Assembly (NCBI RefSeq): GCF_964204645.1
Contig: NW_027437461.1
Coordinates: 1 to 64,000, forward strand
DNA length: 64,000 nt
DNA from: Tubulanus polymorphus
Lineage: Eukaryota; Animalia; Nemertea
Reading direction: 5' to 3'
In this document: positions 47-59,129 of the stretch, piece after piece
Layout: every line of letters begins with the position of its first letter
How positions within the stretch are numbered: the stretch's first letter is position 1
Notes under the pieces: generated by a model
Database searches by the model: none
Told to the model about the DNA's origin: nothing
Seen by the model: the letters and a program-made list of their open reading frames with translations, nothing else
Translations under genes and position numbers: made by a program

Positions 47-3000
47 ATGGAAGATGTAAGAAATTATATTAATTCATTAGATAATAAAAAAGATATAGAG
101 ATAACCGAAGCATTTAAAAGTGATATTGGTCCAGCAGCTATCGAGTTTAAATTTCATAAAGGTAAAACATTAGAAGAAAATAAAAAACATTTAGAAAATA
201 TGAAAGAAATAATAAAAATAATTACAGATGTTGAATATCCTAAAATTAGTATATCAGTTAAAGTAAAGTTTATAAAATCTGAAGATAAACCAATATATAA
301 TATAAATTCTCATTCACAACATATTATATCTAAACAACATATAGATGATAAATTAGAAAAATGTTATAATGAAATAAAAACTAAAATAGAAGAAAAATAT
401 TTTGAAGGATCTGGTTTAATATTTGATGAGATAATATTTATAACTTTACATGTTTATAACACAAAATATAATAAGTTAACTAAATCAAAACCAATTGATG
501 AAAATAATTTATCATATTATAAAGATGATAGTATAAATGGAACAAGTTATATTAAACTACCATTTAAAACTAATGCTGTAATAAACATACAAAATGAAGA
601 TGATAAATGTTTTCTATGGGCTATAATAAGTTGTTTACATCCAGTTGAAGATTATAATAAACATACTTATAGATTAACTCATTATAAACCATTTGAAAAT
701 AATTATAAGATAGATAAGTATCCTGTTAGAATTAAAAACATCCCCAAAATAGAAAGAGATAATAATCTTAAAATAAATGTATTTGATTTAATTAAATTAC
801 CAAATACAAAAGGAAATAATATTAAACATTATACATTAGAACCTTTATATCTATCAAAAGATTATGATTCAAACGATGTTATAGATATATTATATTATGA
901 GAATCATTATATGTGGATTAAACAAATAGATTTATTTTTTAGAACAGAAAGTGATCACCATAATAAAATATATCTATGTAGAAAATGTTTACATAGATTT
1001 AGTAATGAAAGTACATTATTAAATCATAAACAACTATGTGATAATCATGATTATTGTAAATTAGTTTTACCAAATGAAAAGGATAAAATATTAGAATTCA
1101 AAAAATATGATTACAAAAATAAAGTACCATTTGTAATATATGGAGATTTTGAATCATTAAATAAAGAATTAACAGATAAAGATAGAAAAGATATATATTA
1201 TAAAAGAAAGAAATTAAATTCTAATGAAAGTGATTATTCAGATGAACCACTAAAAACAAATACAATTAAAAAGATTCATCAATCAGCTGCTGCTTTCGGG
1301 TTATATATTAAATCTAATTATCCAGAACTAATCGAAAGTGAATATTATAATTATAGAAATGAAAATGTTATCAATCATTTTTGTGACTTATTAATTGAAT
1401 ATGAAATAATATTTAGTAAATTATTGAATACAAATAAAGAAATAATTATGACAGAAGAAGATAAAGAAGAATTTGAGTTTGCAGATAAATGTTATTATTG
1501 TGAAAAGATATTTAATTATAAAGATAAAAAAGTAAGAGACCATGATCATTTGAATGGAAAGTTTAGAGGCGCAGCGCATGAGAATTGTAACTTACAAGCT
1601 AAGAAAATTAACTTTGTACCAGTTATATTTCATAATCTATCAGGATATGATGCACATTTATTTATCAAACAGTTATGTCATAAAATAGAAGAAATCAATA
1701 ATGAAATAGAAATATTAAATTCAAATAAACCAAAAGATAAAATACCAACTTATAAATTTAGAATGTTAGCTAAAACATCTGAGAATTATATATCTTTCCA
1801 ATTTGGATGCTTAAGATTTATAGATTCATATAGATTTTTAAGTAGTTCATTAGACAATCTATCAAAATCATTAGTTGATTATGAATTAAAGATATTAAAA
1901 GAATATTACCCAAATTATGATGATTTTAAATTAATGAGATATAAAGGAGCGATTCCATATTCTTTCTATAAAAATCATAATGATTTTAATATAACTGAAT
2001 TATTAAAAGAACAATTTTATGATGAATTAAAAAATGAATATGTTAAAGATGAAGTTTATAATAGAACATTGAATATTTGGAATCATTTCAAAATAGAAAA
2101 TCATGGTCAATTAGTAGATTTATATTTGAAATCAGATGTATTATTATTAACTGATATATTCGAAAGGTTTAGAGATGTAAACCTAAAATATTTTAACATT
2201 GATCCTTGTCATTGTTATTCTAGCCCAGGATTAACATGGGATTGTGGATTAAAATTTACAGATATAAAAATGGATTTGTTAACAAATATAGATCAATTAC
2301 TATTATTTGAAAAATCTATAAGAGGAGGTGTTTCAGGTGTATTAGGGGATAGATATTTCAATGTAAATGATAACCCTGGATATAAATTATTATACATAGA
2401 TGTAAATAATCTTTATGGTTGGGCAATGATGGAACCACAACCTTATGGGATGTTTGAAATAACTGAAGTTTTACAAATTGATAAATTTGATTGGAAGAAA
2501 AGAATTCTAGATATTGCAGATGATTCAGATACTGGTTACTTCTTTGTTGTAGATTTAAAATACCCCGAAAATATTAAATTCAAATCTAGAAATCTAGCAT
2601 ATTGTCCCGAACATAAAACTGTTAAACATGAAGAATTATCAAATTATCAAAAAAGAATTAAACCCGATAATCATATTCATACTGAAAAGTTAATGGTAAC
2701 TCAAGAAGATAAATATAATTACGTTGTGCATTATAGAATGTTGAAGTTTTATTTGAATCAAGGAATGATATTAAAAAAAGTACATAGATATATTTCATTC
2801 AGTCAATCTAAATGGTTAGAAAAATATATAGATTTTAATACTACACAGAGAACTAAATCTAAAACTGATTTTGAGAAGGATTTCTTCAAGTTAATGAATA
2901 ATGCATTCTATGGTAAGACTTGTGAAAATATTAGAAATAGAAATGATATTGAGTTAGTTAGTAATGGTAAAAGAATTAGGCATTTACAATCATATCCTAA

Positions 3001-3394
3001 GTTTATAGGTAACAGAATATTTGATGAAAATTTAGCAGCAGTTAAAATGAGGAGAACTTCTATGAAGTTCAATAAACCTATTTATGTTGGTGCATCAGTT
3101 CTAGAAATTTCAAAGTTATTAATGTATCAATTTTATTATAACATATTACAACCCCATTTTGGAGAAAAACACATAGAAATCTTATATTTTGATTCTGTAA
3201 CAGCTGACACCCCAATATTTTTAAAATATAATAATCAAATGTTAATTAGAAGAATTTCAGAAATAATTCCAAAACAAAATGAACTTTATATTTCATATGG
3301 TGAAAAAGAATTAATACAAATAAATGGATTAATGGATGTTTGGACAAAAAATGGATGGGTGAAATTAAAGAATATAATTAGACAAAACGAATAA
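47..3394 (+). CDS. polB: Protein-primed family B DNA polymerase, N-terminal part (true start upstream of window), running into intein N-terminus
   Basis: Exonuclease motifs YGDFES, FHNLSGYDAH, YLKSDVLLL; polymerase motifs YIDVNNLYG, KLMNNAFYGK; YFD just before the intein. Embedded CxxC...RDHDH...GAAHxxCN (endonuclease VII-like) domain. Frame is open before the ATG (TIKRIKNKLNNKRPY), matching copy 2 ORF 51931-52476. Confidence 0.95.
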   Translation: MEDVRNYINSLDNKKDIEITEAFKSDIGPAAIEFKFHKGKTLEENKKHLENMKEIIKIITDVEYPKISISVKVKFIKSEDKPIYNINSHSQHIISKQHIDDKLEKCYNEIKTKIEEKYFEGSGLIFDEIIFITLHVYNTKYNKLTKSKPIDENNLSYYKDDSINGTSYIKLPFKTNAVINIQNEDDKCFLWAIISCLHPVEDYNKHTYRLTHYKPFENNYKIDKYPVRIKNIPKIERDNNLKINVFDLIKLPNTKGNNIKHYTLEPLYLSKDYDSNDVIDILYYENHYMWIKQIDLFFRTESDHHNKIYLCRKCLHRFSNESTLLNHKQLCDNHDYCKLVLPNEKDKILEFKKYDYKNKVPFVIYGDFESLNKELTDKDRKDIYYKRKKLNSNESDYSDEPLKTNTIKKIHQSAAAFGLYIKSNYPELIESEYYNYRNENVINHFCDLLIEYEIIFSKLLNTNKEIIMTEEDKEEFEFADKCYYCEKIFNYKDKKVRDHDHLNGKFRGAAHENCNLQAKKINFVPVIFHNLSGYDAHLFIKQLCHKIEEINNEIEILNSNKPKDKIPTYKFRMLAKTSENYISFQFGCLRFIDSYRFLSSSLDNLSKSLVDYELKILKEYYPNYDDFKLMRYKGAIPYSFYKNHNDFNITELLKEQFYDELKNEYVKDEVYNRTLNIWNHFKIENHGQLVDLYLKSDVLLLTDIFERFRDVNLKYFNIDPCHCYSSPGLTWDCGLKFTDIKMDLLTNIDQLLLFEKSIRGGVSGVLGDRYFNVNDNPGYKLLYIDVNNLYGWAMMEPQPYGMFEITEVLQIDKFDWKKRILDIADDSDTGYFFVVDLKYPENIKFKSRNLAYCPEHKTVKHEELSNYQKRIKPDNHIHTEKLMVTQEDKYNYVVHYRMLKFYLNQGMILKKVHRYISFSQSKWLEKYIDFNTTQRTKSKTDFEKDFFKLMNNAFYGKTCENIRNRNDIELVSNGKRIRHLQSYPKFIGNRIFDENLAAVKMRRTSMKFNKPIYVGASVLEISKLLMYQFYYNILQPHFGEKHIEILYFDSVTADTPIFLKYNNQMLIRRISEIIPKQNELYISYGEKELIQINGLMDVWTKNGWVKLKNIIRQNE

Positions 3395-4256
3395 GAAAAT
3401 CTATAGAGTTAGAACTAAATTAGGATTTGTTGATGTTACTGAAGATCATAGTTTAATTAAACGAAATGGTGATGAAATAAAACCAACTGATATAAAAATT
3501 GGAGATGAATTATTACACAACAGATTTTACCCAAGAATGAATCATATGTTATTTGATAAAATAATTGATAATATTTATAATATAGAACCCGAAACATTAG
3601 AAGAAAAAGAATATTTTATCAAAGGATTTTTTATGGGTGATGGTTCAGCAGGTGTGTATAATTATGTTAGTGGAACTAAATATTGTTGGTATTTATGCAA
3701 TCAAGATTTGAAATTATTAGAAAGAATTAAGAAATACTGTGAAGAAGTTTATTCACATAAAACATTTAGAATCATGGATGTTATGAAATCATCGCAATGT
3801 TATAGAATACATGTGAATAATCCTAAAGATTTTGCTACAAAATATAATGATGAATTCTATATTCATGCAATAGTGAAAAGTAATACTTCAACAAAAGAAA
3901 AGATAGTTCCAGATTATGTATTAAATGCAAAATATGATTTAAGAAAATGGTTCTTCATTGGATTTTATGCTGCAGATGGTTCAAAAAAATATACAAAACA
4001 GAAAACTATATCTTTGACACAAAAAGGAAAAGTTGCTATATCAGGATTAAATATATTATGCAATTCATTAGGATTTAATATGTTAGTTAATATTAGAAAA
4101 GATAAACTAAATGTATTTCAATTAACGCATGTAGAAAATGAACTAACTGAAGAAGCTACTGATTTATTTGAAATATACAATCCTACAGAATGTGTTTATG
4201 ATTTAACAACTGAAGATGGTACATTTAATTGTGGATTTCCATTAATCATAAAAAAT
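3194..4256 (+). other. Intein with LAGLIDADG homing endonuclease in the pPolB YxD|TDS motif (2-nt frameshift near 3385)
   Basis: Block A SVTADTP directly after YFD; block B FVDVTEDHSL (shifted frame, ~3426-3455); LAGLIDADG motifs FIKGFFMGDGS and FFIGFYAADGS; block F VYDLTTEDGTF; C-terminal IIKN followed by extein T(DS). Copy 2 reads YFDTDS uninterrupted. Confidence 0.93.
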
Positions 4257-4787
4257 ACAGATTCTTACATATTAAAGATAAAAACTGATAACATAACAGA
4301 TGATTTAAAAACATTAAAACACCATTTTGATTTTAGTAACTATCCTAAAGATCATGAATTGTTTAGCAATGATAATAAAAAAGTTCCAGGGAAGTTTAAG
4401 GATGAATTAGGTGGTGAAGAAATGATAGAGTTCATTGGTATTAGATCTAAAATGTATTCATATAAAACTAAAACTCATGAAGCTAAAAAGTTAAAAGGAA
4501 TTACCAAAAGTGTAGTAGAAAAGAATATTCATTTCAAAGATTACATTAATTGTATATTTAATGAAGAAGTTAGAAAACATAAGATGAAATGTTTAAGATC
4601 TGAGTACCACGAAATGTTTATTGAAGAAATAGAGAAGATAAGTCTAAACCCATTTGATGATAAAAGATATATTTTAGATGATGGAATCCACACAGTCGCC
4701 TATGGTTGCAATTTAGATGAATATATAAAATTCAAAAGAGAAGAAACAAAAGAAAATGAAATCATGAAAAGGATTCTAACGTGTTAA
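3537..4787 (+). CDS. polB: Intein endonuclease/C-terminal splicing region plus pPolB C-terminal extein (same gene as 47-3394)
   Basis: After IIKN: TDSYIL, FDFSNYP, VPGKFKDE, RSKMYS, LNPFDDKRY, typical of a pPolB C-terminus and near-identical to copy 2 41812-42340. Confidence 0.92.
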   Translation: MNHMLFDKIIDNIYNIEPETLEEKEYFIKGFFMGDGSAGVYNYVSGTKYCWYLCNQDLKLLERIKKYCEEVYSHKTFRIMDVMKSSQCYRIHVNNPKDFATKYNDEFYIHAIVKSNTSTKEKIVPDYVLNAKYDLRKWFFIGFYAADGSKKYTKQKTISLTQKGKVAISGLNILCNSLGFNMLVNIRKDKLNVFQLTHVENELTEEATDLFEIYNPTECVYDLTTEDGTFNCGFPLIIKNTDSYILKIKTDNITDDLKTLKHHFDFSNYPKDHELFSNDNKKVPGKFKDELGGEEMIEFIGIRSKMYSYKTKTHEAKKLKGITKSVVEKNIHFKDYINCIFNEEVRKHKMKCLRSEYHEMFIEEIEKISLNPFDDKRYILDDGIHTVAYGCNLDEYIKFKREETKENEIMKRILTC

Positions 4788-4815: not shown

Positions 4816-5157
4816 ATGGAGAGTAAACAAGTACACAGTGAATTCTTAGATAGAATTAAAGATACTTCAAGCGTCAAATCTGTAGATTATAAATTTAAAA
4901 AACTAACTGAGTTAACAATTCACAAGAAATATTTAATTACTAACATTGAAACAATTACTAATAAATATGGAGATAAATTAGTAATTCATTTAGAATATGA
5001 AGGATTAAAAGGAAATAAATATAAATTCAGAACTTATTTACCAGATAGATTTCATAGATTATCAAGTGAAGATTTAGAAGAATTATGTTCTGGAGATTTC
5101 TATTTCGTATACAAAGGTAAGAATGAAAAAGGGCACCATGAAATAGATTTCGAATAA
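4816..5157 (+). CDS. Conserved Polinton protein, 113 aa (possible OB-fold ssDNA-binding protein)
   Basis: Intact in both copies (41441-41782) with TAAATG start. Beta-rich pattern KKLTEL..KKYLI..TNKYG..YLPDRF. Fold is inference only. Confidence 0.75.
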   Translation: MESKQVHSEFLDRIKDTSSVKSVDYKFKKLTELTIHKKYLITNIETITNKYGDKLVIHLEYEGLKGNKYKFRTYLPDRFHRLSSEDLEELCSGDFYFVYKGKNEKGHHEIDFE

Positions 5158-7435: not shown

Positions 7436-8737
7436 ATGGGGTTTCCAAAAGCTTTCCAATATAATAAATCAATTAAATATAATATTCCAGCAATAGATTT
7501 TAAGAAAAATATTACATATAAAAATATAGTTTTAAATTCATTAACTAATTTAGAAATTTATGTTAATGAATCACAGTTTTTTATTTCTAAAATGGAAAAT
7601 ATATTTAATACATATGAAGTTACTTTTACTCGAGATGAATATCATAAATATAAAGTAAAATCTAATATGAAGTATTGGCAGAACCAATTAGATTTTGCTG
7701 TTTATTGTGCAACAACAGGATGTGGAATAAGTTGGAATGATCATTTAAATAACTTAGATAAAAATTTGAAGTATTCTGATTTAAAATTAATTCACACAAT
7801 ATTTAGATTTCACTCATATTTTCAAATCAGAATAATATTAAATGAATTAGAATGTCCTTTACCCGGGTCTAAATATTTTAAAGAATTAGATAATAATATT
7901 AATATATCCAAGTTTTATAAAATATGTAATGAATTTAATATAAATATTAATTCCGATTTTAGAGCGCATGGTAAATTGCAAGGTGTTGGTGAACAGTATG
8001 AAATAAAAAGAATTGATTATATGCATAGAATTGGAGCTTATCATAATTATAAAATTGATAATAATAATGGTTGGGTTAATTTCATTTTAGAAAATGGTGA
8101 AGGTTTTACAAAATCAGGTATAGAAAGAATAAATCAATCTATTAGAACTTATTTGATATGTATTCTAGGCGCCCAAGTTGAAACAAGATCCCCAATAATT
8201 GGAAATGATAACACTTCATTCGATGCGCAAAAACAATTCAAAGTATTATTTGAAGATTCCATACATGATGATAAAAATAGATCGATTCCAGAAAACATTA
8301 TAAGATATCAAAATTATTTAGATAAATCTCATGTAAGACTAAATTATTGTATAGGCCCTAATCTATTAATTATTTCTAATGATTTAGTATTAAAGATGGG
8401 AAATATAATTGGTTATAATAATCTAATTAAAACTGCAACAATAAATAATTCATTTGGATTAAATGATATAAATAAAAAGATTATTACTGCTCCAAAATTA
8501 ATGGAAGGTGAAAAAAATAAAAAACACATTCAATCAACAGAAACTAAAACTAAGAATATTAAATTGGTTAATGATTCCAAAATAAAAGATTATAATACAT
8601 CAGAAAATATAAAAACTGATATTATTCAACATGATATAATTAAACTAAATGATGATAATAAATCCCATGAAAATACTAAATTAGCTATAACTTGTATAGG
8701 AATTGTAATCGGAGGAATATTATATTTTAAATTTTAA
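7436..8737 (+). CDS. Conserved Polinton protein, 433 aa, with C-terminal membrane anchor
   Basis: YWQNQLDFAVYCATTGCGISW motif; C-terminal LAITCIGIVIGGILYF; ortholog 37774-39158. Confidence 0.8.
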   Translation: MGFPKAFQYNKSIKYNIPAIDFKKNITYKNIVLNSLTNLEIYVNESQFFISKMENIFNTYEVTFTRDEYHKYKVKSNMKYWQNQLDFAVYCATTGCGISWNDHLNNLDKNLKYSDLKLIHTIFRFHSYFQIRIILNELECPLPGSKYFKELDNNINISKFYKICNEFNININSDFRAHGKLQGVGEQYEIKRIDYMHRIGAYHNYKIDNNNGWVNFILENGEGFTKSGIERINQSIRTYLICILGAQVETRSPIIGNDNTSFDAQKQFKVLFEDSIHDDKNRSIPENIIRYQNYLDKSHVRLNYCIGPNLLIISNDLVLKMGNIIGYNNLIKTATINNSFGLNDINKKIITAPKLMEGEKNKKHIQSTETKTKNIKLVNDSKIKDYNTSENIKTDIIQHDIIKLNDDNKSHENTKLAITCIGIVIGGILYFKF

Positions 8738-10259: not shown

Positions 10260-11498
10260 ATGAGTGGGAGTTATATAAGTCCCTCTAAGATTTCTAGAAT
10301 ATCTAATGCTATTAAAGCAGAAAGATCACATCATATAATTACTCATAACCCTTCAAATATTAATCCTGATGAAACTTTATATGTTAGAATTCCTAGATTA
10401 ACACAAAATACTTTTTATGTTCCAAACAGTATTTATTTATCCGCTGATATAAAAGTAATCGGTAATAATAACAATTATGTCGTTGATAATGTTGGAAGAT
10501 ATTTAATTAAAAAGTTAACAAGATTGGTCCAGACAGTCTCATTAGATGATTATAATTTATTTATGCATTATAAAGATTTATGGTTAACTAAAGAAAATAG
10601 AAATAATATGATATTTCAAGGAATTCAATCAGAAAACCAAAATAAATTAAGATCAGAAGCTAATAGCGCAATATTAACAAATGATGTAGATAAATTGATA
10701 AAAAGTATATATGGAAGCAAATATAAAATTCCATTAGACTTTGAATTGATAAATAATAATGCACCTTTATATAAATACGCAATTCAAGAAGATATTATAT
10801 TTGAGATAACATTTGCTCCTGTAAATGAAATTGTATTATCTAGCGTTAATAAAGATATGAGTTATAAATTATCGAATATATGTTTAGAATATGATACAGT
10901 AACTGATGAAAATATTTCAAGTATAATTCAAACTCAATACAATCAAGGATTTTCATTATTATATGATTATATTGATAAATTTAAAACTGTAACTATTAAT
11001 GCAAATGATGAAATAATAAATGAGAATATTAACTTTCCTAGAAGATCTATTAAAGGTATATTAATATTTTTTACTATTGGAACATATACTAATGGTGCAA
11101 TAAATGTTGATAATTATTATAATCCTGAAATAACAAAAGTAGAAATAACTATTGAAGGAATAGCAAATAAAATATTTTGTCAAGGAATGAGAATGATAGA
11201 TCAATGGGTAGAAATTAAAAAACATTTTATGAATGAAAAAGTAAAATCATTTGAAAATTGTAACATTAATCAAATTGATTATTATACCGGTAATAAATAT
11301 GCATTATGGTTAGATTTTAGAACAACAGAAGATAATTCATTACATGGTTCTGGGAAAAAATTACAAAATACAAAAGATGGAATACAATTATTCATGACAA
11401 AGAAAAAGGGAATCAAAAATTTTAAAATGCACATTTATATTATATCTGACGCGCAATTAAATATTGTAAATTCACAATTAGATAGTGTTATGTATTAG
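10260..11498 (+). CDS. Major capsid protein (double jelly roll)
   Basis: Size and beta-rich sequence (HNPSNINPDETLYVRIPRL, YKLSNICLEYD, YALWLDFRT) fit a Polinton MCP; highly conserved with copy 2. Confidence 0.82.
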   Translation: MSGSYISPSKISRISNAIKAERSHHIITHNPSNINPDETLYVRIPRLTQNTFYVPNSIYLSADIKVIGNNNNYVVDNVGRYLIKKLTRLVQTVSLDDYNLFMHYKDLWLTKENRNNMIFQGIQSENQNKLRSEANSAILTNDVDKLIKSIYGSKYKIPLDFELINNNAPLYKYAIQEDIIFEITFAPVNEIVLSSVNKDMSYKLSNICLEYDTVTDENISSIIQTQYNQGFSLLYDYIDKFKTVTINANDEIINENINFPRRSIKGILIFFTIGTYTNGAINVDNYYNPEITKVEITIEGIANKIFCQGMRMIDQWVEIKKHFMNEKVKSFENCNINQIDYYTGNKYALWLDFRTTEDNSLHGSGKKLQNTKDGIQLFMTKKKGIKNFKMHIYIISDAQLNIVNSQLDSVMY

Positions 11499-12724: not shown

Positions 12725-13336
12725 TTATTTTATAAATTTATATTCATATGGAAATTGTAATCTCATTAATAATTTTGAACCTTTATTATTCTTTAATTTA
12801 TTCATATATTCATCATGTAATTCAGGAGGTATAATTTGATTTTCTTCTAATGATTGTTGCATAGATTTTCTATCTTTGTTATAAAATAAAACTAGAAATC
12901 TTATATTCTCTCTAAAATCTTTCACAATTGAATTATATTTCTGATTTAAAACCCAAGTTGTTATCCCAAAATGTCTACCAGAGAAAGCTAAATAACATAA
13001 CTCACTTTCTCTAATTTTAGAATCATGTAAATTTGCGCAATCATCTATAATGAATAATGTATTTGATCCTTTAAAAATATCTAATGCAATTTTAATACAA
13101 TTATCTAAATTTTCTTTTACTGTTTTAGGATCTAATATAATAAACTTTTTTATCTTAACTATATCTCTATTATACGTTTCATTCATTTCATATGTAGGAC
13201 AGAATAATATTATATTATCAAAATGATTCTTATAAATAGTTTCTAACAAATCTAATATGAAGTGTGTTTTACCACAATTTGTAACTCCAGTAACTAACAT
13301 ATTATGTGGTTCAAATATAAATAAATCTTTATTCAT
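12725..13336 (-). CDS. DNA packaging ATPase (A32/FtsK-HerA family)
   Basis: Walker A GVTNCGKT, Walker B LFIIDD, arginine-finger motif SGRHFGITTWVLNQ. Confidence 0.92.
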   Translation of the reverse strand: MNKDLFIFEPHNMLVTGVTNCGKTHFILDLLETIYKNHFDNIILFCPTYEMNETYNRDIVKIKKFIILDPKTVKENLDNCIKIALDIFKGSNTLFIIDDCANLHDSKIRESELCYLAFSGRHFGITTWVLNQKYNSIVKDFRENIRFLVLFYNKDRKSMQQSLEENQIIPPELHDEYMNKLKNNKGSKLLMRLQFPYEYKFIK

Positions 13337-14444
13337 TTATTCTTTTAATTTTACTAGATAAAATCCATTCATTAAATTTATCATCATATCCTTTATATTT
13401 CACCAAAGAATACTTTTTTCCTTTAAGAGTTTTTGTTTTCAATACTTTTTCTATTTTGTATTCTATTTCATCTGGATTTGGTACTAATGATAATTCTTGT
13501 TCATAGAAATAACCTAATATTTCTTCATCTTTTAGATCTTCTAGTTTATAAACAAATGGTTTAGTTAATATTATCTTTTTAATTTTAAATATTTCTTCAG
13601 TAAAATTAGGGGTATAACCTTTATAAAATGTTTTTCGATATTTAGATATTCTAACATGTTGTCCTATTTTAAATTTAGGTTCTCCAAAATCGTGTGTAAC
13701 AAATGCGCCATATAAATTATTCCAAACTATTTCCGAATTATCTTCTTTTCTAGCTTGTATAGGTTTCATATTTATAGAACTATGTTTAGAATTATTATAA
13801 CCTTTAACTAAATCATCTAACACATTGATATATTTATATGTTTCATTAGCAGTAAAATATTTCCACATTCTAGTTTTCAATGTTTTATTAAATCTTTCTA
13901 TAACGGATGCTTTTTTATCTGAATGTGTTGAAAAATATTCTACATCGTTATCAGATAATAGTTTTTTGAAATGTTTGTTATAAAATTCCTTACCTTCATC
14001 AAATTGTATCTTATCTGGAATAGCTTCTTTAAATATAGATTTAAAAGCATTTGTAACTTCTATACCAGTTTTATTTTTAATCGGGATACTCCATGCGTAT
14101 CTACTGAATATATCTATAACATTTAATATCCAAAAATATCCTTTGTTATATTCTTCTAAGTTTTTCATATCAATTAAATCAGCTTGCCATTGTTGGTCAA
14201 TATATGAAACCATTACTTTTCTTGTTAAATATTTTTTATCCATCTTTTTATGAATTTGATATGTGGGTTGATTTTGTAACCATGATTTTAATTCACTATA
14301 TTTTATACCACCATGTGGGTGCCGTACGGCACCATCACTATTATCAGATTTAATTTTATTCCATAATTCTGAAACGTTAGAATATGATACTTCACTTTCT
14401 GGGTTATAATATAAATCTCTCAAATATTGTTCTTTTTTCATCAT
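13329..14444 (-). CDS. int: Retroviral-type (RVE) integrase with C-terminal chromodomain
   Basis: WQADLIDM, IDIFSRYAW, IQFDEGKEF, VIERFNKTLK (DDE); C-terminal YKIEKVL...LVKYKGYDDKFNEWI. Confidence 0.95.
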   Translation of the reverse strand: MMKKEQYLRDLYYNPESEVSYSNVSELWNKIKSDNSDGAVRHPHGGIKYSELKSWLQNQPTYQIHKKMDKKYLTRKVMVSYIDQQWQADLIDMKNLEEYNKGYFWILNVIDIFSRYAWSIPIKNKTGIEVTNAFKSIFKEAIPDKIQFDEGKEFYNKHFKKLLSDNDVEYFSTHSDKKASVIERFNKTLKTRMWKYFTANETYKYINVLDDLVKGYNNSKHSSINMKPIQARKEDNSEIVWNNLYGAFVTHDFGEPKFKIGQHVRISKYRKTFYKGYTPNFTEEIFKIKKIILTKPFVYKLEDLKDEEILGYFYEQELSLVPNPDEIEYKIEKVLKTKTLKGKKYSLVKYKGYDDKFNEWILSSKIKRINE

Positions 14445-15741: not shown

Positions 15742-16416
15742 TCATTTCGGATCCTTGATATCAAATTCCTCAACGTATCGTTCATTATTTGGATTATTGT
15801 TCCATTGATCAATAAATTTCTTTGCCTTTGTTAACTGTTCTAAATATAACTGTAAATCTAGTTTATTAGATTTGATTTGATTTTCTTTCTTTTCTAAAGG
15901 TCTTAAATTTTTCCAACCCCAAATAAGTTTCTTATTGTATTCATCATTCATTTTAAATTTAGATATTGGTAACACGTGATCAATATGGTAATAATCCCCA
16001 TAATTATCTATATTCATTTTATCATCGAATTGAAATATAATCCATGATTTGAGAAATTCATCTGAACAACCCAATAAATTAGATAGTGTTTCTGAATATG
16101 TTTCTTTGTTGAATAATTGTGTTAATCTAGACCTTAAGCATTGTTTCAATCTAAAATTAAGATCTGTTTGATATCTTTCTCTCATATATTCTGTCATATA
16201 ATCATTATAAGATTCTCTATTATCTTCTCGGTATTGTTTGGTATATAGTTTAATGCAAGTTTTACAGTAATATTGAAAACCATCTTTGCTAATCTTACGC
16301 TTACTAAATTCTGTTAATGATTTATCTAATTCACATTTAGAACACTTTTTGTAATATATGTTTATAACACCAGTGTTATTTGTAATATTGATAATTTGTG
16401 GTTGTTCTGGTTCCAT
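15742..16416 (-). CDS. HNH-family endonuclease with N-terminal zinc ribbon
   Basis: KKCSKC...CKTC; YHIDHVLP...NLRPLEKKENQIKSNK, an HNH-like pattern seen in phage and large-virus nucleases. Confidence 0.8.
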   Translation of the reverse strand: MEPEQPQIINITNNTGVINIYYKKCSKCELDKSLTEFSKRKISKDGFQYYCKTCIKLYTKQYREDNRESYNDYMTEYMRERYQTDLNFRLKQCLRSRLTQLFNKETYSETLSNLLGCSDEFLKSWIIFQFDDKMNIDNYGDYYHIDHVLPISKFKMNDEYNKKLIWGWKNLRPLEKKENQIKSNKLDLQLYLEQLTKAKKFIDQWNNNPNNERYVEEFDIKDPK

Positions 16417-16898: not shown

Positions 16899-16969
16899 TC
16901 AATCAGATTTACACAATACATTATACAAGTTGTTCGGCCGTTTCTTCTAATACATCATTTGATTTCTAT

Positions 16970-17190
16970 AAATACAATTTATAATTACAAACATTTTTTC
17001 AATTGCTGGTAAATATTTAACTACATCAACAAATGTTAAACTTAATCATTGGAGTCTTAATGTTTTTGAAATTCTTATATAGTTTCTTCGACGATCTTTT
17101 GGCGATTCTATTGGTTTGATATCCATTGCTGTTGATTCCTCAGTCAGAAAGAGTATCTTGAGTTTCTCTATCACTTCTTGATGCGTATGG
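16970..17190 (-). pseudogene. Internally deleted remnant homologous to the copy 2 accessory gene 28798-29528
   Basis: Minus strand reads LSLTFVDVVKYLPAIEKM vs LGLAFSEVVRYLPEIEEM; GATAGAGAAACTCAAGA vs GATAGTGAAACTCAGGA near the 5' part. Confidence 0.55.
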
Positions 17191-17598
17191 CGTTTTATTA
17201 ATCTAAAAGATATTAGCGGCAACTCTAGCCATCTAAAAGATATACTAAATACACTTAAATATATCTAAAGGTTTCATATTTAATAGCCCTAATAACTACA
17301 ACAAACAGTACTTACATTTAGATTTATAATTGTAAACTATAAACTCCTTATTTCGTTTCGAAAGATAGAATATCCTGAGCACAATATTACAGCGTATGTC
17401 CATTTCCGAGGCGATTTCTAGAATGAACATGTTGATTATGCCACGTCATCTAGTTCCGGCACGCCTTTCTAGAATATTCTACACGTTTCTGATTATGATG
17501 CGTCATCTCCATTCAGAGTTCCAGCACAATTTGTAATATTATGAGTCATAATGTCTCGTTGTTATAGTAACAACTGTAACAGCTGTGAATTTATCGAT

Positions 17599-17859
17599 TT
17601 ATTCTATAGCTCTGTACATTGAATGTATATAGGCTAAAATAGAATCATTTTCTAGTATAAACATCATATCCTCAACGTATTGTTCATTATTTGGATTAGT
17701 GTTCCATAATTCAATAAATTTCTTTCCTTTTGTTAACTGTTCTGAATATTCTAATTTCAATTTATTCTCTAAATGTGTTATAGTTTTATTGTGTCTTGCT
17801 TTTTGGGATTTATCTATACTTATCTTACATGTTGGGTAGTAGTATTTATTTGCTTCCAT
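17599..17859 (-). CDS. Chimeric mini-ORF: pPolB N-terminal zinc finger (in TIR) fused to a duplicated HNH C-terminus
   Basis: MEANKYY...HLENKLKLEY matches the pPolB start (52476); SEQLTKGKKFIELWNTNPNNEQYVE matches the HNH C-terminus. Confidence 0.55.
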   Translation of the reverse strand: MEANKYYYPTCKISIDKSQKARHNKTITHLENKLKLEYSEQLTKGKKFIELWNTNPNNEQYVEDMMFILENDSILAYIHSMYRAIE

Positions 17860-18126
17860 TTTAATACTATATTTTTTATTAAAATTGATTTTAGAAGTTC
17901 AATGATTTAAATGTTATTCATTTATGTGAATATTTTAAGAGTAATAGGGATAATAGGCTTTCGTATCAAAGGTTGAAGGGGCGAGTGAGTAAAAAAATGA
18001 AAATAATAATAATTTACAGTTGAATTAGGAGTGTGCGCGACTAATTCAACTGTAAATTATTATTTTCATTTTTTTACGAGCTCGACCCTTCGACCTTTGG
18101 TATGAAAGCCTATTATCCCTATTACT
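17746..18126. repeat. Right terminal inverted repeat of copy 1, with terminal 187-bp palindrome 17940-18126
   Basis: Homologous to copy 2 TIRs; AGTAATAGGG...CCCTATTACT fold-back. Confidence 0.88.
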
Positions 18127-18419
18127 TATGGCCCGTAACGTGGCGCCACCTACTGTATGTTGATATGCTAATGAGCAGGTGATGACGTCGCTGTAACGTT
18201 TCCGCGCGTCCGCGGAGCGGATTTTTCAGCATTACGCGAGCGTATGCTGAGTAAACTATCGCTCATAAATGAAAACAAAAACAACTTTAGTGAAAATTGT
18301 TGTTTATTTCTGAATGCAAATTCTTCACTGAACAAATTGATGCGTAATAAAGGTAGATAAACCGATTATTAACGAAATTACAGACCAAAACGTCGCACGG
18401 AGAGTAGGTGTGACAGACA

Positions 18420-18805
18420 GTAGGCATTAAGTACAATGATCATTGCTTCACCGAGTAGGCCTACTCATTTGCTACCATACTCATATTATTAAAGAAATCA
18501 TTTAATACATTCCCTGGTTAACGGATTCTCACCTTAAAATACATAAACTCCGCTGTCGTTGTCATCGATCCGAGTCGTCAACTGAACGCGGAAGTAAAAT
18601 TCCGTGTGAAAATTCCTACAATTTCTGTCCATATCACGTTGATTTGACCCCGAAATCTTCAGGAAATGTAGCCAACGTAAATAGATTTACGAATAGAATT
18701 AATCAATTGACTCATTTTAGAAATCATGGTTTCGTGAAATTCATTAAAGTCCTAAAACTCGCGATAAATTTAAGCCGAAAATGATTTCACCCATCCACCA
18801 TGTTG
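18420..18805 (-). repeat. Interspersed repeat fragment shared with the interior of HINE 23904-26130
   Basis: Reverse complement aligns by eye to ~24297-24700. Confidence 0.65.
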
Positions 18806-26890: not shown

Positions 26891-26980
26891 ACTTTTCTCC
26901 CACCTACGAATCAGTACTGATGACAATGGCCGTCCATTGTGTCATAATTGGCTGATAAAAAATACCTGTTCATGAGCAAC

Positions 26981-27442
26981 AGTAATAGGGAATATCTTGT
27001 TTCATACCAAAGGTCGAAAGGTCGAGCTCATAAAAAATGAAAAATATGAAAATAATAACAATTTCTATTTGAATTAGAAGCGAAACTCATATAAAATGAA
27101 AAATAATTCTCGCACACTCGAATTTATTTTTCATTTTATATGAGTTTCACTTCTAATTCAAATAGAAATTATTATTATTTTCATATTTTTCATTTTTTAC
27201 TCACTAGCCCTTTCAACCTTTGATATGAAACAAGACATTCCCTATTACTCTTAAAATATTCATATATATGAATAAAATATAAATAAATAACTTCTAAAAT
27301 CAATTTTAATAAAAAATTTAGTATTAAAATTGAAGCAAATAAGTACTACTGTCCAACATGTAATATCAATATAGATAAATCCCAAAAAGCAAGACACAAT
27401 AAAACTAAAACAGATTTAGAGAATAAATTGAAACTAGAATAT
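26981..27442. repeat. Left TIR of copy 2, with 269-bp terminal palindrome 26981-27249
   Basis: Reverse complement of 52363-52817; includes the first ~38 codons of pPolB (ATG mutated to ATT). Confidence 0.92.
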
Positions 27443-27790: not shown

Positions 27791-28437
27791 ATGGAACCAG
27801 AACAACCACAAACTATCAATATAACACTGGTGTTATAAATATATATTACAAGAAGTGTTCTAAATGTGAATTAGATAAATCATTAACAGAATTTAGTAAG
27901 CGTAAGATTAGCAAAGATGGTTTTCAATATTGCTGTAAAACTTGTTTTAAACTATATACCAAACAATATCGAGAAGATAATAGAGAAGCTTACAATGATT
28001 ATATGACAGAATATATGAGAGTAAGATATCAAACAGATATCAATTTTAGATTGAAACAATGCTTAAGATCTAGATTAACACAATTATTCAACAAAGAAAC
28101 GCATTCAGAAACACTATCTAATTTATTGGGTTGTTTAGATGAATTCTTAAAATCATGGATTATATATCAATTCGATGATAAAATGAATATAGATAATTAT
28201 GGTGAATACTTTCATATTGATCACGTGTTGCCGATTTCTAAATTTGACATGAATGATGAATACAATAAAAAACTTATTTGGAATTGGAAGAATCTAAGAC
28301 CTTTAGAAAAGAAGGAAAACATAATTAAATCCAATAAACTAGATTTACAGTTATATTTAGATCAACTGGATAAAGCAAAGACATTTGTTGAATTATGGAA
28401 TAGCATTTCACAGAATCAACCGCATTCTGAGGTTTAG
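27791..28437 (+). pseudogene. HNH endonuclease, copy 2 (7-nt deletion near the start, replaced C-terminus)
   Basis: Ortholog of 15742-16416; ORF 28003-28437 retains FHIDHVLP...NLRPL. Confidence 0.8.
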
Positions 28438-28797
28438 ATCAGTGGTTAGAAAGCTGGCAATTCTATTTGAGCTTTGTATGTATATAATACATAGCTTTTG
28501 CTTACTACTAAAACATATGTTGCCAAATATATCTTGTTTTCAATTCTAAAGAATTAATTAACTTCATCATAAAGAACATCTGTGCAGAAGTAATTAGTTT
28601 GGTCGAACGTGCGCCACGTCGGCAGTTAGAAATCAACTTTCACATACATAGTACGTATTGGATATTCTCTCTCAAAACACAGTTTACAGTTCTAAATCTA
28701 AATGTAAGTACCGTTTTTTGTAGTTATTATGAAGTAGGGAAACCTTTAAACATATTTAAGTACAGTAATTCATTTTCACGACATCTTTTAGATTAAA

Positions 28798-29528
28798 ATG
28801 GAATACAGAGATCAACCAGAAATTCCAAGCCAACCAACGGATGAGGAACCAGAAACGATAGATAGTGAAACTCAGGAATCAATAGAAATGGAGGATGAAA
28901 CTCTCGTAATTGACGAACAAACTTCACAAACATTACAAGAACATTTGGACTATCATCAAGAAATGGTGAAATACATAATAGTGATGTAATACATAATAAA
29001 CAATTACCGCGCGAACTACAATTACCAAAATTACCAGCAACGCGACTTAAATTGCTGTTGGGACTCAAAGAATCGAAAACTAAGAAAATGAGTGGAGAAG
29101 AGTTGAACGAGTTTTTAAAATCTAAATTAATCATTGACACAGAACATTTAAACTTTCCGGAAATACAAAGTGTAGAAGTTATTTCATTTGCTGAAATTAC
29201 TGATATCTTAAAAAAAAGTTATAAAACCATATTAAATAGAAAAGCAAATCACCTATGGGACCACATCATTTTCGGGGGTTATCTAAATATAGGGTTTACA
29301 ATGTTTGATAAAGAAACTGCGGGGATTTCTTGGGGGCTGTGGGTTAAAAAGAACATAGATATCAGTGCTGGTTTTGAAAGAAAACTGAGAAGAGTAGGTA
29401 GATTAATAAAATATGAAAAATTCAAAATATTAGGATTAGCATTTAGTGAAGTAGTAAGATATTTACCAGAAATTGAAGAAATGATTGGAAACAATCCAGA
29501 AATTAAAGAATTCTGGACAAAATTATAG
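28798..29528 (+). pseudogene. Accessory gene (acidic N-terminus plus helical domain), one frameshift
   Basis: ORFs 28798-28989 and 29052-29528 join by a frameshift near 28970; remnant homolog in copy 1 at ~17000. Confidence 0.6.
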
Positions 29529-29599
29529 ATTATAACACTGAAAGTCTTTGTAATATAGATATCAAAAATGTAATCTCGATTGTATATATCTGTTTTAAT

Positions 29600-29958
29600 A
29601 TTGTATTGTTTACTGTTAACTAAGTATTGCGCAATAACCGGTCCGATTGAACCGCTTTTCTATTGTTCTCCATTGTTCTATTATTGATCGTTGTTAATGG
29701 CGGCGGTTGTTCTGTATTGATTGTTTACTGTTAACTGTGTATTGCGCAATAACCGGTCCGATTGAACCGCTTTTCTATTGTTCTCCATTGTTCTACTATT
29801 GATCGTTGTTGACTGAAACAGCTGCTCAATATTGATTGGTTACAGTTCTATGTTTGAATGTTGTAGTTTACAGAATAAAAATATAACTGTGTATTGCGCA
29901 ATAACCGGTCCGATTGGACCGCATTTCTATTGTTCTCCATTGTTCTATTATCGATCGC
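29600..29958. repeat. Three imperfect ~115-150-bp repeats containing TATTGCGCAATA
   Basis: Palindromic cores at 29625, 29740 and 29892, each followed by ACCGGTCCGATTG(A/G)ACCG. Confidence 0.85.
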
Positions 29959-30369
29959 TAAAATTTACATAATAAATATATGTGTTCATGAAATAATATT
30001 TCCACCAGTCGTTTCTTTGAATTTATTTTCAGTTTTAGGATTTATTATCGAGAATCCGAAATGACTTATCTGGACAGTTATAGTTACTGCTCCTATAGAT
30101 GAACAATAGTAGTGAGATAATCTAAATCCTAATTTAAATAAAATATAATAAAAAAACAATAACTTCAACTAGCTAGTGAATTCTATTATATTTTTAATAT
30201 TTTCTTTTGGTAATTCTAATTGACATTAGATTGAATAGATTTTGAATAGATTTGAAAAGAAATTCTTTAACTTTAACTAACCTAGTCAATTTAGTATTAA
30301 CCTAAAGAGATACTAGTATCATTTGAAAAATACTTATAATATTTTTTTTGCTTTTTTTCTCTAATATAA

Positions 30370-35330: not shown

Positions 35331-37757
35331 TTATTTATTTTTTATCATATTCACTAACCCAAAAATAATTGCACTTACAACTGTAATTAAAAATAAAATA
35401 ATATGTTCAGCAGCAAAGTTAATAATGTTTCCTGCAGATTTCAATATAAAACCAACAATTGATGCAATAATTCCTGGTAAAGCTGCAGCAGATTTCTTTG
35501 ATAGTTCCCATAAATATTTTGCTAATTTCTTTAAACCATCCTTAACTTTATCTTGTATAGAATTATTATCATTCGGGGGTTTATCTGGTTTATTGGGAGT
35601 AGGAGTAGATTTCAAAGAATTTGATATTGCTAAACCAATTGTTGTGAATAACATAGTTACAGCCGTTAGAATTGAAAGAATTGTTATTCCTTCAAACTTA
35701 AATAATAATTTTATTCTATCTTTCAATGATATTCTAGAATCTGGTTTTATTAGATATCTTTTAAAATCATCTTTTAATCTATCAATATTATAATCATATG
35801 ATTTTAATAATAATTTAATTTCTTCTTTTTGTAATTCTATGTTATATTCTAAATCATCTTTTTCTTTTTCTAAACGTAATTCTTTTTGCCTATATTCTAT
35901 TTCATCAATAACTTTATTATCTCTATCTAATTTTAATTGTTCTATTTCTTTATTTTTATCAGTTAATTCTTTTTCTAAAAATCTAATTTTAAAATCTCTT
36001 ATTTCTTTTTCATGCGCAATTTTATCAGATGCATGTCTTATACTAATAATCTCTCTAATTGCTTTATCAGAAAATATATCTAAATCTTCTAATTCTTGAT
36101 CTGTTGCATCAAGTAATCCCTTCGGTAAAAGTTTTTCAGTTTGAACTTCTCTTGAATTAGGTCTACTAGTTTTGGAAGTTATATTCTGTTCAGAAGTTGT
36201 TTCTGGTTCTAAATTATTATCGATTGTTTCAAATAATTTATTAATTCTTTGTTTAAATACTCTTTCATTTTTAATAATTTCTTCTTGTGTTACATCTTCT
36301 GGTTCATTACTATTTCTTATTCTTTTAATTCTAGATAGGTCTAACTTAAGCAAAGTTGATTCTGCTAATATTTTGTTTTGTTTTTTATAAGAGATATCAA
36401 TATAATAATCATCTTTCAAACGATAATAATATTCACCATCTAAAAACTTTAATTCTTGTACTAAAAGTCTGGCGCCTCTGGCATTTATATTATATCCAGA
36501 TTCTTCAAATACATGTTTGAAATTATAAATATATTCATTATATTCTAAATTTTCCTTTAAAACTCTTCAGTTGGCGTCACCACGCCTCACGTGACAGCTT
36601 AAACAAAGAGACTAGGTCGTGGTCACGCCTCAAGTGACGGTTCCTATTACCCCCGATAGATGGCAAAGTAGTCAAGCCTGGCTGCTGACACTGAGTCAGT
36701 ATGCTCTATAGAGAGCCACTATGCTCTATAGAGAGCTCACAAGCGATTGTATATACTCTACACACACAGGCAGTATGTACTGGTTGTCGTCGGCAACCAG
36801 GAATGTGAGTGTTGTATCAGCGGTTTTGGACCATATTCCTTGTTTCGACATATACCATACCTAGCTCAATTATCGCTTAGAACATATCAATCTTTTAACT
36901 AAACAAACTTGCAAAATGCAATCTTATCACTAAATAAACTCTCAAATTAATGCCTAATTATCTGAAAACCCTGGGTCATCTGGGGGGTCAAGATGACCCC
37001 CAGATGACTCCCTGACACGTTTTATATCAAGGAAATGAGATATCTAGAGGATTCAGAGGATCAACATTGAGGAAACCCAAAGAAACCAAACAACTGAGAA
37101 GTGATTACGAAATCAGCGAAAATTGAGCGATTTTCACTTTTTTGAGACCCTGAGGATTTTTTGAAATTTCGGACCCCCCAAAGAATAAAATGACTGCCCA
37201 GGATGGTTTTCTTGTTGTCCTATGATATTATGAAAGAAAATAGCTATTTACTATTTTATTTGTATAAGATTCTGGCTTCTAAAGTGCAATACAAAGACGT
37301 TTTTGGTTGCGTGACCTCAACTTGACCTCAGGTTTTGGGGGGTCCTACCTTGCACCCGTAGGTCCAAACTTTTTATTACTAACATTTTCTGGTAGAGATA
37401 CCTATTAGCTTCATAACAGATATTGGTTTTAGGAGGGTCTCTACACTGGAAATGTATCTAACTTTACATAGAAATCATAAGACAATAAAGGCCAAAATTA
37501 ATTCCCCACATTGAATGGATAATGAAGAAATATATCCCCAGCGGATTTTCATTTTCAATAGGTATTCTCGATCTAGTTCTTCTATCAAATTCATCTGTTG
37601 ATGGGGCTTTAGAACCACTATCTGCTAAATTAGAATTATATGCTGATTCATTACCATCATCAATATTAGTTTCTGCATCATTTTAATCATCATCAATATA
37701 TCCTTCATTATTATTTCCCATTTCTCCCATTTCATAATCTTCTCCGCCTTCTGCCAT
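35331..37757 (-). pseudogene. Coiled-coil/TM protein, copy 2, interrupted by a ~1-kb insertion
   Basis: 5' part 37540-37757 (MAEGG...RRTRSRIP); 3' part 35331-36560. Confidence 0.8.
36562..37540. mobile_element. Unclassified ~1-kb insertion, GC-richer than the Polinton
   Basis: Absent from the copy 1 ortholog; local hairpins (GGGTCATC...GATGACCC); no clear TIR or TSD; boundaries approximate. Confidence 0.55.
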
Positions 37758-44059: not shown

Positions 44060-44101
<42 letters not shown>

Positions 44102-45386
44102 TTTCCCCTTTCCAGCCAAAAATTTTTCATAAAATGTAACTCCTCTCAGATTCGACTACTAGCAGCTTATAAACCTAATTTTCAATTATGAAAGAAATAT
44201 AACTCAGCGCCTGACCATTTCCAATTTGCGTATTATAATTGATTATGAATTAATCCCGCGTAATTATTTGGTCTAAACAGGAAATAAGAATGTCGCAAGA
44301 ATCATCATCCATTGATAAATGTACATCGTGAAAAGCCTGCAAATTACCCGACGACCTTGAGCTTCAAAATAAATCACGGATTCGGATTTATAAATCGGGG
44401 TTCGACCTACGACATCCATTCAATGTTTTCAGATTTCGTGCGCATGCGTCAATTTAGCTCGGACGCCATTTTCTTTATTTTACAACGTGCGACGCCACTC
44501 TACGTTACTTGCATTTTTACGACTTTGTTGTGTGTTTCTGTGACCAATCTTCAGAGAGGTATGTATATATAACGGTTAGGCCTAATATGATGTATTTTTC
44601 CACGTAATCTGACGACTGGTATTAAAAGCCGACCGGAATTCGTCTTGATCCGCGTGTTGTGGTAGCAGTCGGGTCTGGTTGGTGTGAGATCGATATCGAA
44701 TCCCGCATGACTTACGCATAGAAGTAGCTTTTAAAAGGCCAAATTTGGGCTAGGTGTTAAGGTTGACCCAATGCGTATGATTTAATAATAGTGTTTGTGG
44801 TATGGGTAGAAAATATTTAGGCCTATATAGACAGCAGCTTAAATATTGAATAATGGGATTTGAACTGCACTAGTGTGTGTGTGTCTGTGTGCGAGAGCAG
44901 GGAGCACTCCATCTCCCTGACCCTGTGACTTATGATTAAGCCACCCGATTCTGCTGAATGCGAACAAGTCATCAGGTTTTCGTGAATGTGAATAAATACT
45001 ATAAGAAGGGACTGCCAATTTTAATGAACACAGAAATATCTTAATTGAAATCGTATGTCAGCTAATTTCAAATTGAAGGCCTATTATACATAAATTACAG
45101 TACACTCCGCCCACTCATGTCAGACCATTTGGGAGTGTAAAAATGTATCCTGCTTTCTGGATCTGATTCAAGCTTAAGTCTACTGTTTGTATATTCAATC
45201 TACCTAGGCCCATAGGCCTAATTGTGCCTGCCTAATTATTGGGGAAATCGACAATGTCAGGTTCTTGAATTTCTCGACTGATGGCGCTAGTTAGAACTGG
45301 ATATTGGTACCTAAATCTGCCATGTTCTAGTTTATTTGCAATAAAAATCTGGCCTCTCAATTTTTTAGTAGGCAGTAGTTATTTTA

Positions 45387-52362: not shown

Positions 52363-52817
52363 ATATTCTAGTTTCAATTTATTCTCTAAATGTGTTTTAG
52401 TTTTATTGTGTCTTGCTTTTTGGGATTTATCTATATTGATATTACATGTTGGACAGTAGTACTTATTTGCTTCCATTTTAATACTAAATTTTTTATTAAA
52501 ATTGATTTTAGAAGTTATTCATTTATATTTTATTCATATATATGAATATTTTAAGAGTAATAGGGAAAAATCTTGTTTCATATCAAAGGTTGAAAGGGCT
52601 AGTGAGTAAAAAATGAAAAATATGAAAATAATAATAATTTCTATTTGAATTAGGAGTGAAACTCATATAAAATGAAAAATAAATTCGAGTGTGCGAGAAT
52701 TATTTTTCATTTTATATGAGTTTCGCTACTAATTCAAATAGAAATTGTTATTATTTTCATATTTTTCATTTTTTATGAGCTCGACCTTTCGAATGAAACA
52801 AGATATTCCCTATTACT
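52363..52817. repeat. Right TIR of copy 2, with terminal palindrome 52556-52817
   Basis: Reverse complement of 26981-27442, with an 8-nt deletion near the end. Confidence 0.92.
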
Positions 52818-52970
52818 AGCAACATTACCAAAAACCAAAAATGAATTTTGACATTAGGAATCAAAAACCCACCCCTTTACCATCTAGGATCTCACTGGAA
52901 ATTAAAGATTGGTGGCGAGGAGAGGGTTAAAAAAATATCAGTGTCGATATTTTCCCTGCCAAGGGGAGGA

Positions 52971-59054: not shown

Positions 59055-59129
59055 TGGCCAGGCGAGCAGATTTAACCACTGGCTGTTTGGATGATGCCGA
59101 AAGTTCCCCTGAGACAGAAGCGATGGGAA

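Follow-up and report, generated by a model that had tools for sequence, protein, structure and literature searches.

The closest described elements are Polinton/Maverick elements of the alpha-adintovirus type, with an OTU-bearing polymerase (described in parts of PMC8097293, PMC8502044, and PMC11071308), and the elements presented here share with them a protein-primed family B polymerase (pPolB) with terminal protein (TP) and vOTU parts, an rve integrase, an A32 ATPase, a probable DJR capsid, TIRs of ∼460 bp, a 6-bp TSD, and AGT...ACT ends. They differ in that the outer 187 to 269 nt of each TIR is a fold-back, in that the end reads AGTAAT and not (AGT)2, and in that no Adenain/Ulp1 maturation protease was detected among 26 ORFs (Pfam) or 13 ORFs (PHROGs), several ORFs having no assignment. 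The word stem "palindrom" is absent from the main text of PMC8097293, PMC8502044, and PMC10748475, with the proviso that supplements or Repbase entries may mention palindromic TIRs, and such ends are not described in the relevant passages of PMC11296320 and 10.1101/2022.07.28.501842.

The one direct precedent that our literature searches found is a preprint on Halocafeteria seosinensis virophages and PLV subtype 4 (bioRxiv 10.64898/2026.07.28.741278), where terminal palindromes are reported in the relevant parts, with hairpin priming proposed; as in our case they are located inside the TIR of an element integrated by an rve integrase, beside its TSD. Those palindromes measure 52 nt in subtype 5 and occur preferentially with non-pPolB replication genes, and section 7 of the preprint contains no analysis of co-variation or polarity. 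The ends described here, in contrast, are 150 to 269 nt long and imperfect, with strand-polarized mismatches and a one-sided motif, and the association with non-pPolB replication genes does not extend to their element, which encodes a pPolB with TP residues.

AAV ITRs and poxvirus telomeres are mismatched terminal hairpins that yield flip/flop isomers, unlike the arms seen here, among which no flip/flop is present. The left-end hairpin of the protoparvovirus MVM, as covered in part of PMC1185569, resembles our ends in that a 3' hairpin carries an asymmetric patch, that one of its arms is active, and that a single orientation occurs; it differs in that here no HUH Rep/NS1 family was found (none among 26 ORFs in Pfam and none in the PHROGs scan), the element is double-stranded and integrating with a putative TP, and each end is a single stem without ears. 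The original prediction took protein-primed replicons normally to use simple TIRs, a premise that is incomplete, since in the TP-capped telomeres of Streptomyces the 3' strand forms a fold that includes sheared G:A pairs, and TP priming is combined with 3' fold-back repair of trimmed ends before the fold opens again for TP priming (PMC5449611, in part), much as we tentatively propose here. Streptomyces telomeres are built from several short palindromes with GNA loops, whereas each end here is one long stem with no such array; they also rely on an internal origin plus end patching, whereas we infer end-to-end strand displacement here, and the proteins are unrelated (a general family scan gave no Tpg/Tap family among the Pfam matches of 26 ORFs). 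We therefore draw the comparison with Streptomyces as one of working principle and not of membership.

The window, by which we mean the whole 64,000-nt stretch of Tubulanus polymorphus DNA that was analyzed, contains two Polinton/Maverick copies of one family in mutually inverted orientation (Table 1), which diverge by 6.2% in the polymerase and by 8.8% in the TIR interior. Their terminal fold-backs are real: they are conserved and strand-polarized, and they belong to a Polinton that retains protein-priming residues. TIRs, a 6-bp TSD, and AG...CT ends, by which PMC8097293 defines Polintons, are all present. The left TIR of copy B consists of the hairpin followed by ∼190 bp carrying the first part of the polymerase ORF. 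At the polymerase end, the ATG of the copy B polymerase, which opens a zinc-finger N-terminus, lies at 52476 (−), 80 bp from the inner junction, and P0001 carries an N-terminus homologous to it. Because the TIR reaches into the polymerase gene, the zinc-finger N-terminus recurs as a short ORF at the opposite end, ∼80 bp from the inner junction (in copy A at 17599-17859, −). The polymerase zinc fingers are candidates for binding of the end motif described below.

Table 1. Positions of the element copies, their termini, and the main genes in the window
Feature	Position	Strand	Details
Copy A	start before base 1, end 18126		18126 is the right end
Copy B	26981-52817		interrupted by insertions; most core genes with frame breaks
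Left TIR, copy B	26981..27442	+	463 aligned columns, 96.5% identity to 52363-52817
TIR at copy B polymerase end	52363..52817	-	
Left TSD, copy B	26975..26980	+	AGCAAC
Right TSD, copy B	52818..52823	+	AGCAAC
Right-end fold-back, copy A	17940..18126	+ (the 3'-end strand)	187 nt; inner arm 17940-18028, apex 18029-18040, outer arm 18041-18126
Left-end fold-back, copy B	26981..27249	+	269 nt; apex 27110-27119
Right-end fold-back, copy B	52556..52817	+	262 nt; apex 52687-52696; outer arm lacks 8 nt
Conserved outer-arm motif	18081..18107	-	spans +20 to +46 counted from the terminus; GGTCGA occurs twice
Inner-arm counterpart of the motif, degraded	17959..17985	+	
Protein-primed family B polymerase, copy A	47..4787	+	PF03175, E 1e-16
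Probable capsid protein, copy A	10260..11498	+	Atlas look-alikes 0.97-0.98 to viral clusters
A32-type packaging ATPase, copy A	12725..13336	-	PF04665, E 1e-11
rve integrase with chromodomain, copy A	13329..14444	-	PF00665, E 2e-9; PF00385, E 8.5e-5
Stand-alone HNH/endonuclease VII-family nuclease, near right TIR	15742..16416	-	phrog_1035, E 4.6e-20

The capsid assignment draws on three Atlas clusters in which Capsid_N/DJR families occur in 10 to 24% of members, with a recognition of 1845 that is below the tool's 2300; the ORF has no Pfam match, and we regard it as a probable DJR capsid. Another conserved ORF (7436-8737, +; 433 aa) has 1,180 relatives at E ≤ 0.001 and gave a mostly helical model from 96 sequences (pLDDT 87.8), and the whole model, searched as a possible hidden Rep or resolvase, had no BFVD match at E ≤ 0.001 and remained below Z 5 in the PDB set, where the last helix dominated. 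The insertions in copy B lie at 44015-50639, 36558-37551, and 28400-30040, the largest of which holds an ORF (47810-49189) in which an OTU domain and also a herpes-tegument-like protease domain were recognized. A host retroelement reverse-transcriptase ORF is present at 58864-61185 (−), and copy A lies in a high-copy host repeat with inverted arms of its own (18127-18423; depth up to ∼2,900) that is probably MITE-like.

All three visible termini are bounded palindromes, and the coordinates and lengths originally predicted for them are exact. AGTAATAGGG begins and CCCTATTACT closes each fold-back, neither occurring at any other site in the window, and all three are flush with the element end (AGT...ACT); in copy B the palindrome lies inside the TIR and adjoins the TSD. 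DNA folding gave −77.9 kcal/mol (z −20.5) for the copy A end and, on segments offset by one base, −98.4 kcal/mol (z −24.5) and −95 kcal/mol (z −24.4) for the left and right ends of copy B, and in each case 0 of 200 shuffles was as stable. No other local fold-back in the window is as strong (E ≤ 4e-46 for these three, with the next best at 8e-19). The apex core GAGTGTGCG is found in the fold-backs, and the 3' end is paired flush in the predicted fold, making it a potential primer as in the rolling-hairpin ends of parvoviruses.

Relatives were sought among 87 loci; in six of them, the bulk of the polymerase is present with an identity of at least 58%, and of the six, three extend to the end region. 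One of the three (L001, polymerase 77% identical) has a complete 257-nt fold-back with AGT...ACT bounds (z −12.9) adjoining a GC-richer flank; this hairpin is homologous to those of the window, comes from an unrelated assembly, and is the only complete AG...CT-bounded fold-back among the 87 loci, one that a scanner limited to ungapped arms and to loops no longer than 30 nt had missed. A second (L004, 77%) starts inside a fold-back. The third (L005, 64%) has an outer-type end with the outer motif and no inner arm (z −0.13), and its polymerase ORF is unbroken at 1,336 aa. In IMG/VR, a single-protein search gave no relative and an alignment search gave 3 distant loci, and two end-motif patterns had no match. 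Several other folds were rejected as termini: a 239-nt, 91% palindrome in L070 (135-373), whose ends are not AG...CT and which lies ∼900 bp upstream of a broken polymerase, is probably a host fold-back insertion, that of L082 is built of repeats, and those in L044, L048, L078, and L080 were likewise discarded. L081 and L083 have long inverted repeats with no definable end and no long fold-back, and have little bearing either way. L001 also carries a second, direct copy of its first 17 terminal bases at about 948-964, just upstream of the polymerase and after a small ORF whose window counterpart (4816-5157) lies downstream of the polymerase, which suggests a rearrangement at an end-like site.

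The proximity of the polymerase ATG to the inner junction, the repetition of the ORF start at the other end by the TIR, and the AT-rich arms would all fit an inner arm kept for another job, as polymerase promoter or packaging signal, with folding secondary. We consider this very unlikely indeed, as L001 and L004 have another ORF between hairpin and polymerase, and a promoter has no need of mirrored arms or strand-polarized mismatches.

Fold-back chimeras are a known artifact, and the palindromes would have been undermined had reads not supported them. Four of five runs were compared over 16950-18750, one of them (X5) consisting of raw reads from another sample and study under the same species label, of which ∼12% of the run was used; the other runs, X1 to X4, are contigs, of which X1 to X3 entered the comparison, and show presence only. 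X5 reads cover the whole copy A hairpin. Together with the three ends, the arm-specific differences, the L001 homologue in another assembly, and the TSD, which is intact on both sides of copy B as had been claimed, this refutes an assembly or amplification artifact, to which we attach practically no credence.

The same reads indicate where insertions end. Beyond 18126, 1,749 X5 reads become loose with an agreement of 0.33, which indicates that the outer ACT is the end point of many insertions. A search for insertions with their end at the inner AGT had also been suggested; no loose end falls at 17940 among the six X5 loose ends listed (the smallest of 568 reads), and the depth steps only from 1,788 just inside the inner junction to 1,893 on the inner arm, so that a small share at most can be solo hairpins or insertions whose end is the inner AGT. 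Depth on the outer arm rises to 2,614, an excess over the 1,893 of the inner arm. A joint at 17996-18070, found in 71 reads (24 with listed letters), defines a 150-nt class that is symmetric, its new stem of 13 bp being perfect and its apex reading GA...GA; in contigs the hairpin measures 152 or 153 nt, with the apex perfected in one case, and collapsed hairpins occur in 22 and 34 reads. A 592-read joint between 18126 and 18222 on opposite strands was considered as a targeted insertion and rejected, as its contig pieces are host-side and match the inverted repeat of the flanking high-copy host element.

When the arms of copy A were aligned with those of the copy B left end, 65 columns were invariant and 18 were mirrored; in 6 the outer and inner arms differ in the same way in both copies, 8 changed singly, and none was crossed. 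The mirrored columns are accounted for by about four events, with 10 substitutions and an indel of 8 nt; the longer arms of copy B, to which this indel also contributes, represent a fifth event, built on a duplicated 19-nt unit at +47 and +106. Both sequence blocks that had been quoted as co-varying are present, and with 18 mirrored and no crossed columns the co-variation of the arms between copies is upheld. The outer/inner mismatches and the apex core said to be retained are also present in the copies, 6 columns keeping the difference. One change absent from the earlier account is an 8-nt loss within the conserved motif of the copy B right-end outer arm, which is unmirrored. Across copy A, both ends of copy B, and L001, 21 of 107 predicted pairs are changed on both sides, in a comparison of four rows of which two come from one copy and in which the apex is poorly aligned. 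Co-variation thus persisted in further copies, by reads and by L001, and the proposal of a maintained terminal structure is borne out by the symmetric 150- to 153-nt read variants and the homologous hairpin of this relative.

Three features go beyond what had been noted before, namely, an intact motif on the outer arm only, a polarity that never flips, and a bias of G.T and G.A mismatches to the 3'-end strand. The motif at +20 to +46 (TTTSATACCARAGGKCGARRGGKCGAG) is common to the outer arms of copy A, the copy B left end, L001, and L005 in exact, ungapped register, while positions +7 to +19 vary among these same arms. The inner arms of copies A and B, L001, and L004 all deviate from it: each of the four has one or more CGA-to-TGA changes, and in A, B, and L001 the C at +27 is replaced by T. 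Judged from this pattern of conservation, the outer motif is likely to be an origin or att binding site. The earlier suggestion that each end offers two inverted origin/att sites is not supported, as the inner motif is degraded, depth barely steps at the inner junction, and the six X5 loose ends listed include none there. Flip/flop isomers, for which a search had also been suggested, are absent from all three window ends and from the four arms of relatives, and the reads set an indirect bound on them: the outer type lies on the outside at every window end (3 of 3) and in L001 and L005, and the inner type on the inside at every window end (3 of 3) and in L001 and L004.

At 12 of 13 non-neutral mismatch sites in the window, the 3'-end strand is favored, with G.T or G.A on that strand and C.A or T.C on the opposite one (the binomial P of 0.003 is heuristic, as sites are not independent events; one A.A site was set aside). 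The 3'-end strand is predicted to fold 9 to 12 kcal/mol better at all three window ends, while in L001 the two strands are equal in predicted energy (−69.4 versus −69.5). GA stands opposite GA at the central bubble (+48/49) and at the apex, and in L001 the 3'-end strand reads C(GAA)G at the apex; two adjacent G-A pairs leave the stability of B-DNA unperturbed (PMC11014236, in the part concerned). Deamination of single strands was rejected as the cause of the polarity: it would predict the opposite, because under end-to-end displacement the 5'-end strand would be exposed longest at each end.

A neutral by-product would be hard to reconcile with these asymmetries. Under that view, an old template-switch duplication of the end has become near-perfect through quasi-palindrome correction and has no function. 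Palindromes do perfect themselves through template switching, and the contig variant with a perfected apex, the 56 reads with collapsed hairpins, the unmirrored 8-nt loss, and the missing inner arm of L005 are all compatible with it. Correction should, however, erase the 6 outer/inner differences common to copies 6 to 9% apart and the +27 difference common to L001, and it offers no reason for the 12/13 polarity; moreover, long palindromes are a liability, yet a homologous hairpin persists in a lineage with a 77% identical polymerase. We therefore judge the neutral reading very unlikely.

Strand-biased folding also brings to mind integron attC sites, imperfect palindromes in which G:T pairs and purine skew let one strand fold better (PMC5027507, in part), which provide a precedent for strand choice by G:T skew; attC is a bacterial tyrosine-recombinase substrate, and the analogy is for strand choice only. 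By this parallel, the fold might be a substrate for integration or excision and not for replication, with the integrase reading a folded single-stranded end and the mismatches choosing the strand. The outer end is indeed the insertion end, by the TSD and the 1,749 loose-ended reads. A DDE integrase also transfers the 3'-end strand, but rve integrases act on duplex ends and need short att sites only. As L005 appears to be integrated without an inner arm, and a stem of 90 to 130 bp is left unexplained, this reading is distinctly unlikely.

The polymerase still looks protein-primed, given the conservation of TP and vOTU residues in alignments and their placement in the model. In copy A it comprises a TP domain, a vOTU (Cys188, His287), an endonuclease VII-like insert, and an intein. 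Its fold matches are to adintovirus/MELD PolB (best E 4e-17), and its PDB matches are weak (E ≥ 0.005) and to Y-family polymerases. In a model of the N-terminal 350 residues (pLDDT 82.5), Ser122 (numbered from the Met at 47) is predicted to lie in a Gly-flanked loop between the second helix (98-120) and the last strand (125-137) of a four-stranded domain, a site that matches the TP linking residue as given in section 7 of PMC11071308. Of 50 aligned sequences, 48 retain Ser122, 49 the vOTU Cys, and 49 the vOTU His, the vOTU residues being as in section 9 of the same source. A LAGLIDADG intein lies in the YxDTDS motif of the copy A polymerase (about 3194-4256, +; frame break near 3380-3394), the site is empty in copy B (about 42334-42343), and the homologues P0010 and P0019 have similar inteins; intein-derived endonuclease insertions in polinton pPolBs are mentioned in PMC11071308. 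Polinton-type polymerases also occur in bacterial MAG records (P0007; L084 to L087), which are probably eukaryotic or viral contigs binned with bacteria.

We hypothesize, tentatively and at somewhat less than even confidence, that the ends are Streptomyces-like 3' fold-back telomeres that protect, repair, and re-present the 3' end for TP priming. The polymerase would start with TP at the outer end and displace a strand, leaving the 5' end TP-capped and the 3' end bare, and the bare 3' end would fold onto the inner arm ∼90 to 130 nt away and not onto the other TIR ∼18 kb away. Such a fold would protect the 3' end, supply a template for refilling, and act as a local duplex origin that replaces the long-range panhandle. 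G.T wobbles and tandem G.A pairs may stabilize the fold of the 3'-end strand, while the complementary C.A and T.C mismatches would weaken the fold of the other strand and, we propose, thereby reduce cruciform extrusion in the chromosome. Trimmed ends would be refilled from the inner arm and local template switches would copy patches between arms, which could together produce the mirrored changes. Selection would retain the outer motif and keep the inner one disabled, confining priming and integrase cutting to the true end, and flip/flop might be absent because TP priming copies the outer arm, apex, and inner arm in order.

Several points weigh against the telomere reading, which is built on integrated copies from which we infer the free genome, the TP linkage, and the folded DNA. 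A flush 3'-OH beside a single-stranded template is a ready primer, and run-on past the inner junction would be expected unless blocked; the fold-back is not universal among close relatives, as L005 indicates unless its contig is collapsed; L001 has no predicted strand energy difference; and refilling alone cannot account for mirrored changes near the apex, beyond retained mismatches. If run-on is real, it would lead to closed ends and dimers and would call for a one-sided nick, as at the MVM left end. This is the core of a second reading, which we consider somewhat unlikely, in which priming is by snap-back (rolling hairpin) with asymmetric resolution: the folded 3' end would prime the second strand, giving closed-end and dimer intermediates, and the rve integrase or the HNH/endonuclease VII protein (a candidate junction nuclease in this putative role) would nick just 3' of the outer ACT through the outer-only motif, preserving a single orientation. 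TP priming would then serve open ends, and the hairpin could start the copying of an integrated, TP-less copy. Flush 3' pairing and 3'-strand polarity agree with snap-back, as do the two nuclease domains and integrase that are encoded, and near-apex mirrored insertions are most easily explained by a stem that is processed as duplex DNA. The fixed asymmetric patch of the stem and its one motif-bearing arm recall MVM, which has its origin on one side and resolves its junction asymmetrically (PMC1185569, in part), and hairpin priming is what has been proposed for protist virophages and PLVs (bioRxiv 10.64898/2026.07.28.741278, in the part concerned). On the other hand, the conserved TP and vOTU residues imply that a second primer is not needed, the 26 ORFs include no HUH/Rep family, the additional nicking specificity is hypothetical, and no outer-arm-to-interior joint is present among the joints listed, in host DNA that is dominated by integrated copies.

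The two readings could also be combined in a hybrid replicon, which is unlikely, whereby a TP virus has its second strand, and the first copy from its integrated form, primed by a strand-selective terminal hairpin, with resolution in one orientation by the integrase (or the HNH/endonuclease VII protein) nicking the motif-bearing arm only. If true, this would amount to parvovirus-left-end logic without an HUH protein and would explain how copying of an integrated, TP-less Polinton starts.

The exit of Polintons from the chromosome and their replication are still a paper model of long-range TIR panhandles and protein priming. The fold-back supplies a concrete, conserved cis-structure that brings its own controls, namely, an outer arm that bears the motif and an inner arm in which it is disabled, a strand predicted to fold well and one predicted to fold poorly, the natural 150-, 187-, and 269-nt classes, and the relative without an inner arm, making predictions on binding, nicking, folding, and end structure testable with natural sequences. 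It also suggests that palindrome finders allowing few mismatches would miss such ends, and it adds a pPolB Polinton to the protist elements, mostly with non-pPolB replication genes, in which terminal palindromes are described.
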